A stretch of DNA of 64,000 nucleotides. Origin: Eledone cirrhosa. Taxonomy: Eukaryota. Positions 1,214-64,000 of this stretch are shown one piece after another. The stretch spans positions 202,926,001 through 202,990,000 of the forward strand of contig OZ024742.1 of NCBI GenBank assembly GCA_964016885.1, read 5' to 3'. The first letter of the stretch is position 1, and each line of letters begins with the position of its first letter. The position numbers and the translations under genes are program-made. The notes beneath the pieces were generated by a model, which was not told the DNA's origin, searched no databases, and saw only the letters and a list, made by a program, of their open reading frames with translations.

Positions 1214-2152
1214 TCTATATAAAGTTGTAGTTCCTGTCTGTTTGTTCATGAACTCCTCCTATGGTTTTGGAGATAGACCCCCATCATTTCATTTCATTTC
1301 ATTTCATTTCATTTTACGTCCACTTTTTCCCTGCTTGCAAGGGTGGGACGGGAACTGATTCTGGCTTGATTTCTGCAGCTGGATGCCCTTCCTAACACCA
1401 ACCTCATTTACAGTGAGTGCTGGGTGCTTTTTTGCCGTGGCGCCTACACGTCCACTTTGCAGTGGAATGATATGGACCCCAGGCCCTATCATCTCATTTC
1501 TACAGCTGAGTAAACTGGAGCAATGTGAAATGAAGTGTCTTGCTCAAGGAAACAACACATCACCCGGTCTGAGAATTGAACTCCCAACCTTTCGATTGCA
1601 AGGCCAATGCTCTAACCACTAAGCCATTTGCCTCCACATAACCATATATATTCTGAAACTACATTGCCCAGGGTACTTGGATAAGTATATTTCATTTTAA
1701 TTAAAGGTTTTCCCGGGGGCACAAACCTCCGCTGAATACCCCTGCTGAAAATGTTTTTGCTTCTATTTACATGAAATTTAAACCATACGTAAATGATGCC
1801 TATTCACAAAATTTCAGTAAATATCAATAATACTAAGACACCCTAATGGGGGTTAAACCCCCTATAGTGAACATTTTGGAAGCCCATAACTTGAGTATTG
1901 GAACCTCTATTATCACAGAATTTTTCTATTAATTAAACGTAAATCAACAAAAAGAGCACCTCTCTTTTATAGTAAAATTTTGCTAGACATTTTAATCACT
2001 AGAATTATGACAACAAAAATTATTATGCCTCTACTTTTTTAACATTTTCCCTTTATTTTTTCTCCATGAATTATATCACTGATTTAATATCAATCATCAT
2101 TTTCTTACAAAACAAATGTGTGAAATGTAACAAGGTGCGGGTAATTCGGATA

Positions 2153-8306: not shown

Positions 8307-10303
8307 GAGTCTAACCTGCCAGTCAGACTGATAGCCCCCTCCCAGTCAGACATGGGGGTTATTAGAAAAAGCATTTTAGATAGGATCCCGCCCACACTTA
8401 AGAGTAAAATAAGGTTACAACTCTGGTCCTGCACCAGCCAGGTGCTGGACTGGTTTACCTGACAAACATAGGACTAGCTTCATACAACTAGACATACAAT
8501 TACTACTCCTCTATCTCGCCCATAGTCCTGAACAAGGCACTCATATTCATGATGAATAGGACAGACATAACATGCGACGAGGTCCGAATCATACACGCCG
8601 CCAGAAAGACCCTGATCTGATTCGGTGGGGACATATGGACCCAGAGCGACTGGCCAAATAATTTTGACATTACAATGGGCTCCAGTGACTCCGTGCAGCT
8701 AACTTGGTTGGGATATACATACTCTACGAGATCAGGAGAGAAATACCCAACCTGGATGGCGGGCTGTACCGAGACGACGCACTCTTCACCATAGTGGACC
8801 ACAGCACCACAATGGTAAAAAATATGAAGAGGAGAATTAGGCACTTCTTTAGCAAGGTAGGACTTAAAGTAGAGATGGAACCCAATAGAAAAGTAGTGAA
8901 TTTCCTGGACACCACCCTCAACCTCAACACCAAGCTACACCACCCATATCATAAACCCAATGAGAAGCTGGTGTATATCAACGCTGGATCCAATCACCCT
9001 AGATCTATAGTTAAGACCATAGTTAAGAGTGTCTCTGACAGGATCTCTAACTTGTCGGCCAATAAAGAGATCTTCAATAGTAACGCTGATTACTATAACT
9101 CAGCGTTAGCCAAGGCGTCCCACAGTCATAGGATCAGCTACAACCCTAAGGGACATGATCGAGATGACCTAAGGGACCAATACCCTCAGGGGCATGAGTC
9201 GCCCACCTAATCCCTCGGTGACCAGTAGTAACACTCCCAGACCCCTATCTGTCACCACCCCCGGTAGAAGGTCCCGCATACCCCACAGGTCTAATACCTA
9301 CAGTGCTGGCACCCCTGCACTGGCCCCACCACCCGCTGAACCCTAATTGAGCAGGGAGGCCGCACCTCGCAGGTTTATAGCCCCACGGTGGGCCCATATA
9401 ACCCTCATGAAAGTGACCGCTCTGCACACCTGAGTGACACCAACTGAGCTCGACCTGAGCTGTGCACAACCACGTGATGGACCATGGCGGACACCCAACA
9501 ACCCCGCAAGAATAGGACCAGAAAGGTCACATGGTATAACCCTCTGTACTCGGTGGGTCTACGTACCAGCCTGGCTAGAACATTCTTTAGAGTATAAATG
9601 TTTCACTAGGGTCACAAGTACTATAAAATATTCAACAGGCACACAGTGAAACTTTCCTACTCAACCACATGCTCCGTAGCCCAGCACACAGCCGGCATAA
9701 ATAGGAATAGGCTCACTGCCTCTAATACCACCGTAAACCCCGGAGCCACACAACAGAACCAGCACGCGGGACGCACCGGAACCCGGACAGGCCCAACTAG
9801 CACACCGGAACCCAACGACCCTGTGCTGATTGCGGAGTCTACCTAGCCAACCCCGAGTGATGGTAACCACGCGGTACATGTGGTGGGGCTTAAGACCCAT
9901 ACTATGCCCCCTTAGTAATGAATGCATGACGAAAAACGTAGTCTACAGGTGCAAGTTCACAACCCCTAACTCGGAGCACCACTACATAGGATCCACAGCG
10001 ACGAGCTTCAAAGATCGGTGGTATAACTATCGCCATTTCTTTAACAAAATAGATAAGAGGAAATGTACGGCCCTTTCTGAATTGATCTGGAAGCTCAAAC
10101 TTGAAATGAACCCGCACTCTCTGGTCTGGTCCATGGTTAGAAAGGTTCCCCCAGACAGAGGCTGGTCTGGTATTTACAACCTCTGTCTTAGTGAGACACT
10201 CAATATTCTTCATGGCGGAACCAAGCTATTAAACAGAAGGGCCGACTTATTCGGTGACTGCAGACACCTAAGGACGGGAACTTTCCTCAAGCTATATGGA
10301 TAA
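8307..10303 (+). mobile_element. Decayed Penelope-like retroelement (RT + C-terminal GIY-YIG endonuclease), 5'-truncated
   Basis: RT motifs FDITMGS, GGLYRDDAL, VNFLDTTLNL, PYHKPN..YINAGSNHP; KIFNRHTVKLSYS; CPLSNEC..NVVY..YIGST..FKDRW GIY-YIG and terminal DCRH; stops and frameshifts; begins in a (TA)n tract. Confidence 0.9.
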
Positions 10304-29032: not shown

Positions 29033-32000
29033 GTGCAGGCCGGAGAATTGTTCTTCCTCCTTCAATCTATGATTCCCCTCGCTTCTACAGTGAGTGCTTT
29101 CAGAATTCGATGACTGCAGTTTGACACATGGTAAAGCCATCTTATTTCATCACGATAACAACTAACCCTAACTGGGATGAAATAAAAAATAGTTTGCACC
29201 CTGGTGAAAAACCTAGTGACCATCCTGATATTTGTGCAAGTCTTCAAGATCAAGTATGACAGCCTCATGGATGATTACTGAAAAAAAATGTCCCAGGAAA
29301 AGTTGTGGCTCATTCTGCTACAATAGAGTGGCCTCACTCATGCTCATATTCTGCTGATAATGGCTGAAGTTAGCAAGCCCAAAACTGCTGATGCCATTGA
29401 TCAGATAGTGTACTGTGAGATTTCTGATAAAGAGACCAATCCAATTCTGCATAAGATCATCACATCCTGCAACATTCATGGCTCTGGTGGACAAGCTAAT
29501 ATGATGTGCTCATGTATGGAAGGGCTAGGACAACAACGCCATTGCTCAAAAAGTTATCCCAAGGCATTCAGACAAACCACATTTGTTGCCGAAAATTCCT
29601 TTCCGGAGTATAGCAGAAGGGATAGACAGCTTAGTGGTAACACCCATACAATCCAACTGAAAGGTCAAGAATTTACTGTTGATAATCGTTGGATTGTTCC
29701 ATACAACCCTTTCCTCTCATTGAGATATCAGTGCCACATCAATTGTGAGGTTGTCCACAGTGTCAAGGCTGTTAAGTACTTATATAAGTACATCACAAAA
29801 GGATCAGACAAGATCACTTTCACTATTAAGGATGATCAAGGAAATTGTGTCCATGCCTAAAATGAGATTGAGACCTATATCAATGCATGGTACATCTCAG
29901 CCAGTGAAGCATTCTGGAGAATCTATAAATTTCCATTACATCATCGAAAACCGCCAGTTGAAAAGTTACCTTGCCATTTACCTGGAGAACAAATGGTCGT
30001 GTATGAGCGAGGGCAGGAAGAAAGTATTGTTTCTAGGGGAGAGCCAATGACTAAGTTGACGGAATATTTTCAACTGAATATTAGAGATCCACTGGCACAA
30101 AACATATTGTATATTGATATTCCTAGATATTTCACTTGGACAAACAAAAAGTGGCAAAGAAGAAAAAAGGGACATCTGGATGGTGATCAACAATTTATGA
30201 GTGAATCTCTTGGACACATTCCAACAGTATCTCTCAGTAGACATCAATCTGAATTATATTACCTCAGGATGATCCTACATCACAAGGCTAGGTCAACTTC
30301 ATACAAAGAGTTGAGAACAATTGAAGGAGTTGAATTTCCAACATTCCAAGAAGCATGCAGGAAACTTGGTCTGTTAGATAAAGATGGAGAAAAAGACAAA
30401 GCTATGGAAGAGGCCTTATCCATTACGCATGGTCTTCAGCTGTGAGAGATTTTCTGCACCATTTTATTGTACAGCATGCCAAATGACCCTCTGCAGTTCT
30501 GGGAGAAATGGAAGAATTGTCTTGTAGAGGATATCATGCAAGTCATGTCCATGCAAACCGTGCAGATTCGCCAACATTGAATCTTGAGCAACTGGTTATT
30601 TTTCACAAAGTAATCACCTCTGTATATGAAAATGAAGGCAGAATTTTCTGCTTGAATGCAAGTGGAGGTACAGGAAAGACCTACGTCATAAACATCCTAT
30701 TTGATTACCTCCAATCTAAAAAGAAAAATTGCACTTGCCACTACCATATCTGGAATAACAGCCACTTTGCTACACAAAGATAGAACTCTTCATTCCAAGT
30801 GCAAGATTCCTGTCAATGTGACTGCTGAATCAACTTGCTTCTTCACAAAGAGCGATGACACAGGTAAACTTATGCAGCAAGCTGACCTGCTAATCATTGA
30901 TGAGATAGGTATGGGACATAAGCATATCTTTGAATGCCTTGACAGGAGCTTCAAAGATGTTCGAGATTTCAAAAAGCCATTTGGTGGTATTACTATCTGG
31001 TGACTGGAAGCAAATTCTTCCAGTTGTACGTCATGGTGTTAGACCACAAATAGTTGAGGCAACCATCAAGAGATCCTATCTCTGGGACTATGTAGAAACC
31101 ATGGAGATGACAACCAATCAACGGTTAATTAATGCAGAGGATTCTGATGAAAGACAGTTTGCAAACTACCTTCTTGATGTGAGAAATGGTAACATTCCAA
31201 CTGTAGGTGCATTCACAATTCTTCTGCCAAATGAACTTTATCTTGAATATGGTAATGTGACTGTGTGATTTTATGTATACAAATCTTCCAAGAAACTACA
31301 CAAACCCACTATGGCTTGCAAATAGAGCCATTATCACTCCAGCAAATTATGCAGTAAGATTGGTGAATGAGTTCATGGTCAACAAGGTCCCTGGTCATAA
31401 GATAATCTACAGAAGCTCTGATACAGTAGATAATTATTTCTACTTTTGGCACAAGGCCAGCAATTATCGCAGTGTATTACTGGTACTTTATTTTATCGAC
31501 CCTGTAAGGATGAAAGGCAAAGTTAACCTCAGCAGGATTTGAACTCAGAATGGCAAGCGACGTAACTCTATGTGTCAAAGCATAGTGTCCGACCCTCTAC
31601 CGATACTGCCAATCCAGGTAGATAATGAACTGCAATATCCAATTGAGTTCATCAACAAACTTACCCCATCAGGCTTCCCAACACACATACTTAAACTGAA
31701 GAAAGGCAGTTTCATCATGCTTCTGAGAAATCTGGATCCTCTAAACGGGCATTGCAATGGTACACACTACATCACCATCAGTTTACATAATCATGTAATT
31801 GAAGCTGAAGTGGTATTGGGTCTCAATGCTGGAACACGGTTGCCACATGTATCTCAAGAGCTTGAGTTCCCTTTCACCTTTACTCGCAAGCAATTTCCTG
31901 TCAAACCAACCTTTGCCCGTTATATGCAACAAGGCACAAGGGCAGACATTTGAAAAGACAGGTGTATATCTACCAACACAATTCTTCTCACATGGTCAGA

Positions 32001-56475: not shown

Positions 56476-58209
56476 ATATTAAATTCAAATATTAATAAAA
56501 TAGATGTTCTTGTGATCAATTCAATTTTATTATACATATTTCAGAGGTACTTGAATCAAGTTCAATAGTACGTCCTCATCAGATAAAATAAAATGATACA
56601 TGACATACCCTGACATGTTAAATGCTTAAGATTTAATCAAGGTAGTGATTAACTTGGGAGAAAACTCAATATTTATACCGTACAAATGAGAACATGGGAA
56701 AACGTAATAGAATCAATAGAGAGGGTGTGAGTAAGAAAAAGATTCCTTTAATGCAACAGTTATAGAGATATTAATGTTTGAAATACTACTGTAGGACTAT
56801 AGAGGAAGACTATAGATATCTGGAGTTATATTAGTTTTTAGTTTGAGAATGCAGCTGATATATAATTAAAGAGAGAGGGATAAGGGGAGTAATTTATGCA
56901 CAAATATTCATCAGACACATATAAACATATATAGCCTTGGCGGTTAAGTTTCAAAATATTTAATTTATGTTATTTTAGGGTAACAAATCAAAATTATAGG
57001 TTTTAAAAGTTGAGGGTTATTTGTGTTATAAATTTTATAAATTTATAAATGTGTTAAATTTCTAAAATTCAAAGTTTTATGAAATCGAATTTATGAAATC
57101 GAATTTAAAGGATTATACTGTTCAATATTCATGCAAAGGTAATCTTTAAAATATTACTTGTAATATTATCAACAATATCCATATGTATAGTTTATGAAGT
57201 ATTTACAGTTATAATTATCAAGGAATTTATTGTTAAATGGTTATAGTGGTTATAGTGGTTATAGTGGTTATAAAAATTTACAGGTTAGATATCAAAACTA
57301 TATTTAAAACAGAGATAGAAAAATAAATGTCTGGATCAAAGTTAATAATATCCAAAAATATTGTTTAAGAACAAGATGGCATGTTGATATACAATACCTA
57401 TGGCTTTTTGGATATACTTTTGTTATACTTTAGACACTATAACCATTTAACAATAAATTCCTTGATAATTATAACTGTAAATACTTCATAAACTATACAT
57501 ATGGATATTGTTGATAATATTACAAGTAATATTTTAAAGATTACATTTGCATGAATATTGAACAGTATAATCCTTTAAATTCGATTTCATAAATTCGATT
57601 TCATAAAACTTTGAATTTTAGAAATTTAACACATTTATAAAATTTATAAAATTTATAACACAAATAACCCTCAACTTTTAAAACCTATAATTTTGATTTG
57701 TTACCCTAAAATAACATAAATTAAATATTTTGAAACTTAACCGCCAAGGCTATATATGTTTATATGTGTCTGATGAATATTTGTGCATAAATTACTCCCC
57801 TTATCCCTCTCTCTTTAATTATATATCAGCTGCATTCTCAAACTAAAAACTAATATAACTCCAGATATCTATAGTCTTCCTCTATAGTCCTACAGTAGTA
57901 TTTCAAACATTAATATCTCTATAACTGTTGCATTAAAGGAATCTTTTTCTTACTCACACCCTCTCTATTGATTCTATTACGTTTTCCCATGTTCTCATTT
58001 GTACGGTATAAATATTGAGTTTTCTCCCAAGTTAATCACTACCTTGATTAAATCTTAAGCATTTAACATGTCAGGGTATGTCATGTAACATTTTATTTTA
58101 TCTGATGAGGACGTACTATTGAACTTGATTCAAGTACCTCTGAAATATGTATAATAAAATTGAATTGATCACAAGAACATCTATTTTATTAAATATTTGA
58201 ATTTAATAT
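56476..58209. repeat. Long inverted repeat: about 773-bp arms (56476-57248 / 57435-58209) with a 186-bp spacer, in a TA tract
   Basis: Arms are reverse complements with only about 4 differences found by eye; each arm carries a hammerhead-like motif. Confidence 0.93.
58090..58160 (+). ncRNA. Hammerhead-like motif in the long inverted repeat (mirror copy at 56524-56595, minus)
   Basis: ATTTTATTttat-CTGATGA-GGAcGTACtaTTGAA cttga TTCAAGTACcTCT-GAAA-TATG-TA-tAATAAAAT; minimal stem III, imperfect stem I junction. Confidence 0.55.
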
Positions 58210-58299
58210 TAATAACTCTGGAAAATATCTTCTTGTTGAGTGCTTTCAATCTACTGTAATACTCATTCTTTGATGTACTCATTGAATCTTGTTTAACTC

Positions 58300-58354
<55 letters not shown>

Positions 58355-58413
58355 GGAATACTGTTGGGTTCTTGCTACAATAATTTCTATACTTTTCATT
58401 TATATATATATAT

Positions 58414-58798
58414 ATATGAATGTATATACAGTATACTTTGCAATACACTGTATGCTTAATTAAAAGCTTTTTAAGACCTTATGCTATTGTTTTAGAGCGC
58501 CAAATCTAATTTTCAATTTCTGCTTGACGGACAACCGCTCTGTATAGTCAGTTCCTGATTATTACTAGAAATTCTATAAGAATCAAACATTCATGATTTT
58601 CAGCAAACAGGTGGAGTACTTGGCTTTGATAAGTACCAATCAGTACGAAACATAGCTCTGTCAGCTTTATCTCCCCTGTTTGCTGAAAATTAAAGTAAGT
58701 GAGTCTGTCACTAATCTAAAACAATAGCATAAGGTCTTAAACATGCTTTTAATTAAGCATACAGTGTATTGCAAAATACACTATATATACATTCATAT
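58414..58798. mobile_element. TA-adjacent insert with about 83-bp inverted ends enclosing a hammerhead
   Basis: ATATGAATGTATATA..GCAATACACTGTATGCTTAATTAAAAGC..TTAAGACCTTATGCTATTGTTTTAGA mirrored at 58715-58798. Confidence 0.85.
58596..58690 (+). ncRNA. Type I hammerhead ribozyme with U3-A8 core and extended stem I
   Basis: GGCT-TTGATAA-GTAC caatca GTAC-GAAA-CA tagctc TG-TC-AGCT; GUC cleavage after 58662; stem I continues as GGAG/CTCC and TTTTCAGCAAACAGG/CCTGTTTGCTGAAAA. Confidence 0.82.
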
Positions 58799-58799
58799 G

Positions 58800-59697
58800 G
58801 CCTAGAATCATAAGGCCTTAAAGTTAACTTGTCTAAGACTAAAGTTCTAGTTTGTAGGAAGGAAAATAGGGCACCGGTCCCACCTGGGAAATGGCCATGC
58901 TCAGTGTGTAGGAAAGAAGTAGGCAGAAACTCCATTTTATGTCCCAAATGCAAAGTATGGGTGCAGTAAAGATGTAGTGGGATCACAGGTAAGCTAACTA
59001 AGAATATACATTTTATATGTGGCCGGTGCTCTGGTGCAATAAGTAGCAGCAAGTGCCCACAGAATACTAGCTCATTCCATTGCACAGATGGTTCTATAGA
59101 AATAGTGGACACCTTCCGTTACCTGGGTGAGAAAAATCAGCAGTGGGGGTGGGTGCTCTGAAAGTACAGTAACTAGAGTCAGAACGGGATGGCAAAAGTT
59201 CAGAGAGCTTATAGCACTATTGGCCGCTAAAAATGAAAGGCAGGCTGTATGATGCCTGCATATGAACAGCAATGTTACATGGCAGTGAGACCTGGGCATT
59301 GTGTGCATAGGATATATGCAGACTGGAGAGAAACGAAGCTTGCATGCTCCGCTGGATGTGTAATAGTAATACACGTGAACGGCAAAGCATAAACGAACTA
59401 AGCGAGAAATTAGGAATAAGAGGGATCAGATGTTGTTTACTTGAGAGAAGACTACGTTGATACGGTCACATGATGCGCATGAAAGCCACTCCGTGGCTAC
59501 CGTCTATTTTTATCGCCCTGCACTTTTTTATACAGCTGTCGTCTTTCATGCGCATCACGTTACCATACCAACGTAGTCTTCTCTCGAGTAAACAGCATCT
59601 GATCCCTCTTAATCCTAATTTCTCACTTAGTTCATTTATGCTTTGTTGTTCGCGTATATTACTATTACACATCCAATGGAGCATGCAAGCTTCGTTC
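58800..59697 (+). mobile_element. RTE LINE RT C-terminal fragment followed by an inverted copy
   Basis: GLKVNLSKTKV..CSVC..CPKC..RC..CGRC..IVDTFRYLG..GWQKFREL..ERNEACMLRWMCN; 59543-59697 is the reverse complement of 59332-59485. Confidence 0.88.
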
Positions 59698-62965: not shown

Positions 62966-63355
62966 ATCATCATCATCATTTCATCATTTCATTTTACGTC
63001 TGCTTTTCCCTGCTTGCAAAGGTGGGACAGGAACTGATTCTGGCTTGATTTCTACAGCTTGATGCCCTTCCTAACACCAACCTCATTTACAGTGAGTGCT
63101 GGGTGCTTTTTTTCCGTGGTGCCTACACATCCACTTTACAGTGTGGGCTGGGTGCTTTTTTGCCGTGGCACCTCCATGACCACTTTGCAGTGGAATGATA
63201 GGGACCCCAGTCCCTATCACCTCATTTCTACAGCTGAATGAACTGGAGAAATGTGAAATAAAGTGTCTTGCTCAAGGAAACAACACATCACCCAGTCTGA
63301 GAATTGAACTCACAACCTTTCGATTGCAAGGCCAATGCTCTAACCACTAAGCCAC
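62966..63355 (-). mobile_element. SINE family A with an internal duplication
   Basis: Family A sequence with the TTTACAGTG..GGGTGCTTTTT..CCGTGG block duplicated. Confidence 0.88.
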
Positions 63356-64000
63356 ATACGTAATATATTGAGATGAAAATCTTAGGTTAAATGAATGTGT
63401 CTAGCCACCAAGGCTTCATAACAGGTGTAGCCAAGGAGAAGTAAACCATGAATAGTACATCTTGGGTAGAACTACCAGGATACAGGATGGAGCTTGACCG
63501 ACTCCAGCTGGGTTGCCTGGGTGATGTTGTCTGATGTTGAACCCCTAAAAACAACCAAGGACAAATCAGTTGAAAAAGAAAATAAACTCCCTCTAGGAGT
63601 TATTACAGCATCAACATCGCCATTTTTACGTTGCCTTTCCCGTGTTGACTTACGATGGATGAGACATTTTGAGGCAATGTTTTACAGACAGATGCCCTTG
63701 CTGACACTAACCCTTTTAGTTGCTTCTTACAACATGCAGGGATATACAAAATGCATATACATAGATGTGTGTGTTTGCATGTGTGCATGTGTGTGTTTAC
63801 AATGAGCTTCTGAGATTTCTGTCTACCAAATATCAACCCCAGTACATATTTTTTAGATTTGGTGCTTATTTATTAATCCCTTTTTGTGGAGCCAGTAAAT
63901 TATGGGGCGTAAACAGTAAATGTAAACACAGACATAAACACACACACACATTTATACATATATGCATATAAATATATACATACATATATATACACATAAC

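Follow-up and report, generated by a model that had tools for sequence, protein, structure and literature searches.

The RNA of a non-coding repeat of approximately 321 bp in Eledone cirrhosa is predicted to self-cleave through a hammerhead ribozyme, and was likely reverse-transcribed into (TA)n sites by an autonomous Penelope-like protein. Taken together, the predicted self-cleavage and the likely Penelope-type insertion lead us to consider this monomer an animal non-LTR retrozyme, with a probability of about 0.8. One copy of the family lies in the 64,000-nucleotide stretch of DNA analysed here, referred to below as the window.

The type I hammerhead motif of this copy occupies 58622-58666 on the plus strand, where its core, stems and C17 were identified in the sequence. 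Stem I (GGCU/AGCU, 58622-25/58663-66; 4 bp, one of them G-U) encloses the core UUGAUAA with U3 and A8 (58626-58632), stem II (GUAC/GUAC, 58633-36/58643-46) with its loop CAAUCA, the GAAA (58647-50) and helix III (ACA/UGU around UAGCUC, 58650-61). By hammerhead numbering, cleavage is predicted after GUC, between C17 (58662) and 58663. The required nucleotides are all there (U4, G5, A6, A9, G12, A13, A14, A15.1-U16.1, H17 and G10.1-C11.1), and the U3-A8 core, stem II, stem III, GUC and stem I were all read where the original prediction had placed them. A type I descriptor scan of both strands of the 64 kb returned this motif as its single match, and 20/20 shuffles gave 0 matches. A CUGAnGA descriptor scan of the window was empty, just as had been anticipated for searches requiring CUGAnGA. 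Rfam also missed the hammerhead at 58622-58666 at its gathering score, the best relevant match being Hammerhead_HH9 over the whole model (18.2 bits vs. a gathering score of 52, E 0.11).

The ribozyme sits within a plus-strand hairpin (58596-58690) consisting of an outer stem (58596-58611/58675-58690), a bulge and an inner 4-bp stem (58613-16/58671-74). Folding of 58596-58690, outer stems included, gave a z of -6.6. Both stems had been predicted, the longer one as 15 bp; we count 16. The earlier description of the hammerhead as intact is accurate for the core nucleotides, but in the minimum-energy fold of the hairpin only stem II forms, while stems I and III do not. Relative to the ensemble, the hammerhead fold is 3.3 kcal/mol higher in energy, vs. 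1.8 in a clade of sister copies with C3-G8, tertiary contacts being outside the model. Stem I has three Watson-Crick pairs plus the G-U, vs. 6-7 pairs, with a median of 7, in the C3-G8 clade. As modelled, the window copy is among the weaker predicted ribozymes of the family.

Comparison of copies showed that the repeating unit is a head-to-tail monomer of approximately 321 bp (58490-58798 in the window plus a linker of about 12 bp), with a GC content of 0.32-0.35. The family occurs as solo copies, short tandems and one long array, with a cut-to-cut period of 317-329 nt in natural tandems and one type I hammerhead per unit. The long array was followed over 14 kb, in which it has at least 42 complete monomers, its right end lying beyond view. 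Its units (G000:C28:5643555 onwards; L127, L128) include recurring variants, suggesting a higher-order repeat, and several have A9G or stem I changes. The window copy has no reading frame of 130 aa, in keeping with the predicted lack of an ORF, and stop-to-stop frames in arrays are 77-99 aa long.

The insertion in the window begins at a (TA)n tract (58401-58413), the likely target site, as most classified 3′ ends of the family abut (TA)n. It is followed on the minus strand by an inverted, 5′-truncated second copy of the monomer 3′ end (58414-58497, a 94% match to 58715-58798), which meets the monomer at a short common AGAG. The plus-strand monomer (58490-58798) stops at a 'short' 3′ end, without the linker and the tail of about 30 nt found in other copies. 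Outside the element, a broken LINE reading-frame fragment, recognized by translation and presumably RTE-type, starts abruptly at the junction (58799-59485, plus strand). This LINE sequence has a 157-bp inverted repeat of its own (59329-59485/59543-59699, 90%). Of the two inverted-repeat levels originally described, the inner hairpin and the outer match (58414-58496/58715-58798, 83/84 bp, 94%) are both present; the outer one does not, however, represent terminal repeats. The proposed 385-bp element with 83-bp terminal inverted repeats gives way to the tandem monomer seen in other copies, where the length of the arm varies. That the 385-mer folds like a rod (z -21) results from the inversion in the window copy; the circles predicted for six natural cut-to-cut monomers are branched (z -2.3 to -5.9, 55-62% paired). 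The window copy is about 93% identical to its clade-mates. Having only one ribozyme, it would not release a cut-to-cut monomer, and it probably derives from tandem source loci instead of being a source itself.

The 95-nt hairpin had 1,588 preliminary candidates in the 3.0 Gb genome searched, and 21 of the 40 scored were identical to the window sequence, itself included. Counted as exact matches to the core plus stem II (reversed-pattern controls gave 0), U3-A8 occurs 1,405 times and C3-G8 106 times genome-wide; an unpaired or wobble combination was found in only 26 of 1,537 exact matches (C3-A8 in 12, U3-G8 in 14). The survey of genomic copies called for by the original prediction yielded more than 1,400 copies, with all but these 26 exact matches paired at 3/8, and the U-A found here vs. 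C-G in sister copies bears out its view of U3-A8 as a compensatory pair. It should be noted that these exact patterns undercount the family, since stem II varies: two copies in L039 (1609-1703, minus strand, and 1996-2090, plus strand) both have a U-A to C-G double change in this stem, and the 3′ half of that change appears at about 11% of depth in the contig data.

The C3-G8 copies are the same monomer with the same architecture, at about 83% identity. A third clade, at 80% identity, has 40 matches, all with A8, with U3 in 19 of the 20 loci read, and its helix III is a 10-nt palindrome. In an unrooted tree of 41 of 151 rows, the three clades had support of 100/99 or better, and the C3-G8 clade was set apart by one double change at 3-8, a single event on such a tree. 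We examined covariation in an alignment of 65 of the 121 hairpins found plus the window, with none of the 38 divergent ones left out. Among 64 distinct copies, 92.2% of cells pair, compared to 31-41% in slid controls. Double changes affect 10/32 pairs, a level reached by 4/500 shuffles, although kinship among the aligned copies inflates such counts. They include a C-G to U-A change in stem I and an A-U to G-C change in the outer stem, where 5/16 pairs show double changes. Each of the three clades has a helix III of different sequence that is complementary to itself, with a self-duplex of -12 to -20 kcal/mol; the helix III of the window copy lacks one pair (self-duplex -7.3). One paper reportedly treats Penelope hammerheads that cleave as dimers. 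By analogy with systems described in passages of PMC4209133 and PMC7229834, the palindromic helix III fits cleavage as a dimer. The compensatory changes at 3-8, in stem I and in the outer stem, together with the three palindromic helices III, speak for selection having acted on the fold in the source copies.

Three comparisons addressed the core. Between clades, it varied at 0/12 columns vs. 42/237 elsewhere, a result biased by the use of core patterns to find the clades. The contig data, which are unbiased, have 26 variable places and none in the 14 core places, numbers too small for significance. In the long array, core changes were found in 8/546 cells vs. 431/9,243 in the rest, the units not being independent. 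Differences between clades concentrate in the hairpin region and the last 60 nt of the monomer differ at one column only; judged by sequence, this near-invariance suggests what would be expected of a recognition site. In a sequencing run from a second organism (X4), a small share was seen at a depth of 2-5, as a 190-nt piece with 7 differences and a loose C3...G8-core end, a thin observation. None of the data sets listed as containing the sequence was RNA, and three further runs, made up of contigs of unstated type, show neither starts nor ends. Metagenomes gave 35 pattern matches; a complete type I fold was found in 0 of 20 distinct contexts, and none resembled the monomer.

To characterize how copies are inserted, 146 clusters were reduced to 112 distinct insertions of at least 150 bp with both flanks in view. 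Loci were chosen for the presence of a ribozyme, which inflates read-through and does not affect the test of 5′ breaks. Both orientations were present in 77/112 insertions (56/89 when the 385-nt search, which favours inversions, was left out) and 35/112 had no inverted arm. Across 75 insertions, the shorter inverted arm measured 30-497 bp, with its inner end anywhere in the monomer; this variability is why we recognize neither a 385-bp element nor a terminal repeat. The outer 3′ ends were far more regular: 164 of 186 lay at one of two sites, the first after ...CATTCAT(AT) and the second 26-33 nt beyond it. Measured from the predicted cut site, these ends are 135-170 nt downstream. In 48 insertions there was one end of each type, short on one side and tailed on the other. 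(TA)n abutted 133 of the 164 classified 3′ ends, vs. 562/5,600 random spots (10%). The 5′ breaks fell within 4 nt of the cut site in 3 of 189 cases, where about 5 would be expected if they were uniform, and 70/189 arms were longer than one monomer plus tail. At most one ribozyme motif per strand was present in 86/112 insertions, and at least two in 14.

These marks, i.e. 5′ truncation with an inverted copy, an optional tail and a microsatellite target, are a Penelope-like signature. For Penelope-like elements, passages of PMC8557442 describe partial tandems, an inverted 5′-truncated copy, an optional tail of 30-40 bp and microsatellite targets, and PMC11167929 describes the tail as the stretch between two internal reverse-transcription starts. 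A non-coding monomer whose insertions have this shape agrees with the non-autonomous retroelement originally proposed.

Two explanations that dispense with retrotransposition can be judged from the same survey. The ends of the window copy, a 94% inverted match with TA at the left end, could be taken for the 83-bp terminal repeats of a miniature DNA transposon with a TA target and a captured hammerhead. This we regard as scarcely credible: with arms of any length between 30 and 497 bp, inner ends anywhere, 35/112 insertions lacking an arm, head-to-tail arrays and 48 insertions with unequal ends, the copy survey found no fixed repeats or length and ruled out a terminal-inverted-repeat transposon. 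A satellite spreading at the DNA level by unequal exchange or extrachromosomal circles, with the hammerhead as a relic of a Penelope terminal repeat, would account for the long array on one contig, and 10.64898/2026.07.22.740005 puts forward a local amplification that starts from a terminal repeat. We consider it very improbable for the family as a whole, however, as most insertions are dispersed and short (86/112 with no more than one motif per strand), and DNA-level exchange does not produce 3′ ends at fixed sites, 5′ ends that vary, or inversions. It may account for no more than the lengthening of the long array.

A linear cut monomer was ruled out, since 5′ breaks are not piled up at the cut (3/189), leaving a circle or an uncut multimer as the likely template. 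It is conceivable, if rather doubtful, that the monomer is a non-autonomous Penelope-like element propagated from uncut read-through multimers with no circle at all. Its hammerhead would then be a passenger that is weak or needs a protein, or one now decaying in the youngest clade. The disregard of 5′ breaks for the cut site and the 70/189 arms exceeding a monomer plus tail are what this explanation would predict, but a ligated circle would yield the same pattern. In its favour, insertion of the Anolis element persists when the hammerhead is mutated, with uncut RNA serving as its chief substrate (PMC11167929), and stem I and helix III are, by modelling, weakest in the youngest and most abundant Eledone cirrhosa clade. 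Against it stand the compensatory changes at 3-8, in stem I and in the outer stem, the three palindromic helices III, and the rarity of an unpaired or wobble 3/8 (26/1,537 exact matches).

The retrozyme reading would proceed as follows. Tandem loci would be transcribed, and the ribozyme would cut slowly, aided by two units pairing through their palindromic helix III. Released monomers may then be ligated into circles. A Penelope-type reverse transcriptase would have two internal starting points, 135-170 nt downstream from the cut, and from one of them copy circular or uncut multimeric RNA; a second priming event or a template switch would give rise to the inverted arm.

A candidate for the helper is a young Neptune-like Penelope family with a reverse transcriptase, a CX4CX2C linker and GIY-YIG at the C-terminal end (26,942 preliminary candidates; for example L177:2537-6187, minus strand, with further copies in L175, L176, L178 and L179). 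Its frames are 1,141-1,217 aa long and many copies have equal scores. The family has a minimal hammerhead in its 3′ repeat, and the 3′ ends of its copies lie at three fixed sites, after which comes (TA)n. L121 contains a head-to-head join between a monomer array and a 5′-truncated Neptune-like copy, with no target DNA between them; the join runs through a 13-nt inverted piece of monomer and (TA)n lies at both outer ends. A second head-to-head join, in L142, involves another Penelope family. Joins of this type to Penelope fragments thus account for 2/38 5′ ends and concern two different families, and in a repeat-rich genome they may be due to chance. Penelope fragments near other copies (L074, L089, L119, L051, L069) were set aside as independent insertions, with (TA)n or other DNA lying in between. 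The monomer has no detectable sequence similarity to the Neptune-like 3′ repeat (155 and 292 of 300 shuffles equalled the score), in a comparison of terminal repeats that covered this one Penelope family in full and others as fragments. A likeness between the 3′ ends of monomer and Penelope noticed by eye did not beat shuffles either. We tentatively suggest, as one possibility among several, that a monomer circle is inserted by the Neptune-like protein through recognition of how its conserved 3′ hairpins fold and no common sequence, the two forming a matched retrozyme-helper pair with U3-A8 and C3-G8 versions.

Further Penelope families with minimal hammerheads of their own were seen at L125:6950-7000 and L121:8190-8240 (both minus strand) and in the L120 flank, and elements that target (TA)n pile up side by side. 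In the window, broken Penelope-like reverse transcriptase and endonuclease frames at 8689-10303 (plus strand) resemble those in L124. Directly upstream of the window copy, at 56476-58302, lies a second high-copy non-coding family (2,162 preliminary candidates), a 1.75-kb head-to-head palindrome (94%) with an extension of about 90 nt that terminates in (TA)n. A type I hammerhead-like motif, CUGAUGA...GAAA, is present in each arm (about 58096-58161 on the plus strand); its stem I is 7 bp, its long stem II is bulged and has G-U as closing pair in place of G10.1-C11.1, and its helix III is palindromic. This family has the same inversion and two-3′-end pattern as the monomer, and a diverged relative with the same core occurs in L183. 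Elsewhere in the window, broken reading frames at 29327-31953 (plus strand) look to us like a Helitron-type helicase, and a marginal tRNA match at 63289-63361 (minus strand; 29.5 bits vs. a gathering score of 29) is possibly the head of a SINE.

The family shares much with the animal non-LTR retrozymes of coral, mussel and axolotl, as presented in passages of PMC7229834: a 150-450-bp non-coding tandem monomer with a GC content below 50%, one type I hammerhead per unit, a range from monomers to long arrays, and a predicted self-paired circle. Like them, and like the retrozymes in the main text of a vertebrate survey (10.64898/2026.07.22.740005), it coexists with Penelope-like elements. It departs from those animal retrozymes in the U3-A8 core of most copies, with a C3-G8 sister clade, and in its Penelope-type inversions, tails and (TA)n targeting, for which word searches of the main texts of both papers gave nothing. 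In the vertebrate survey, 24/57 Xenopus retrozyme families correspond to known elements, in 21 cases to PLEs, unlike the Eledone cirrhosa monomer, which has no similarity to the one PLE terminal repeat tested; 8/9 Xenopus retrozymes tested there did not cleave.

U3-A8 itself has been described in natural hammerheads (PMC3088659, in part), and about 1,300 Penelope-associated (Cercyon) U3-A8 motifs are reported for Schistosoma mansoni in passages of PMC4209133. The two species have in common the U3-A8 pair, high copy number and a palindromic helix III for dimers. The schistosome motifs are, however, minimal hammerheads, mostly single and heterogeneous, in which stem II is long and helix III nearly absent, whereas the Eledone cirrhosa motif combines a stem II of 4 bp with a helix III of 3-4 bp and a stem I that contains an internal loop, and belongs to a tandem monomer. 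In stem II, helix III and the stem I internal loop, it resembles the Rfam HH9 consensus. Its insertions resemble those of endonuclease-bearing Penelope-like elements (Neptune, Naiad) and of non-autonomous Chlamys elements such as MRC1 (passages of PMC8557442 and PMC11167929) in 5′ truncation, partial tandems, inverted copy, tail and microsatellite target; unlike these elements, the monomer has no frame, a 321-bp unit, a canonical-type hammerhead and no autonomous parent recognizable by sequence. The relevant passages of PMC13282606 do not mention ribozymes. The monomer family is not described in the literature on hammerheads, Penelope elements and cephalopod ribozymes that we covered, a search for which subscription papers, supplements and repeat databases were mostly outside scope; supplements or repeat databases may list it already. 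Similarly, neither a U3-A8 tandem retrozyme with a C3-G8 sister clade nor a count of Penelope-type insertion marks for a retrozyme was found in the main texts compared.

Penelope-like elements are named in a passage of PMC7229834 as a candidate for carrying animal retrozymes to new sites, and a tie between retrozymes and PLEs is argued from co-occurrence and common sequence in parts of 10.64898/2026.07.22.740005. The monomer family adds evidence from the anatomy of insertions: marks of a Penelope-type reverse transcriptase at more than 100 loci, and a template that is not a cut linear monomer. It also places a retrozyme and a young helper candidate with intact frames in the same genome, and brings to light a ribozyme family of at least 1,400 copies that is invisible to CUGAnGA descriptors and Rfam thresholds. 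As the component parts are already known, what is gained is a case open to testing and no novel type of system. Penelope-type proteins can be assayed in vitro (PMC11167929), and if the monomer and the Neptune-like family do form a matched retrozyme-helper pair, a first reconstitution of retrozyme transposition from a circle would become possible.
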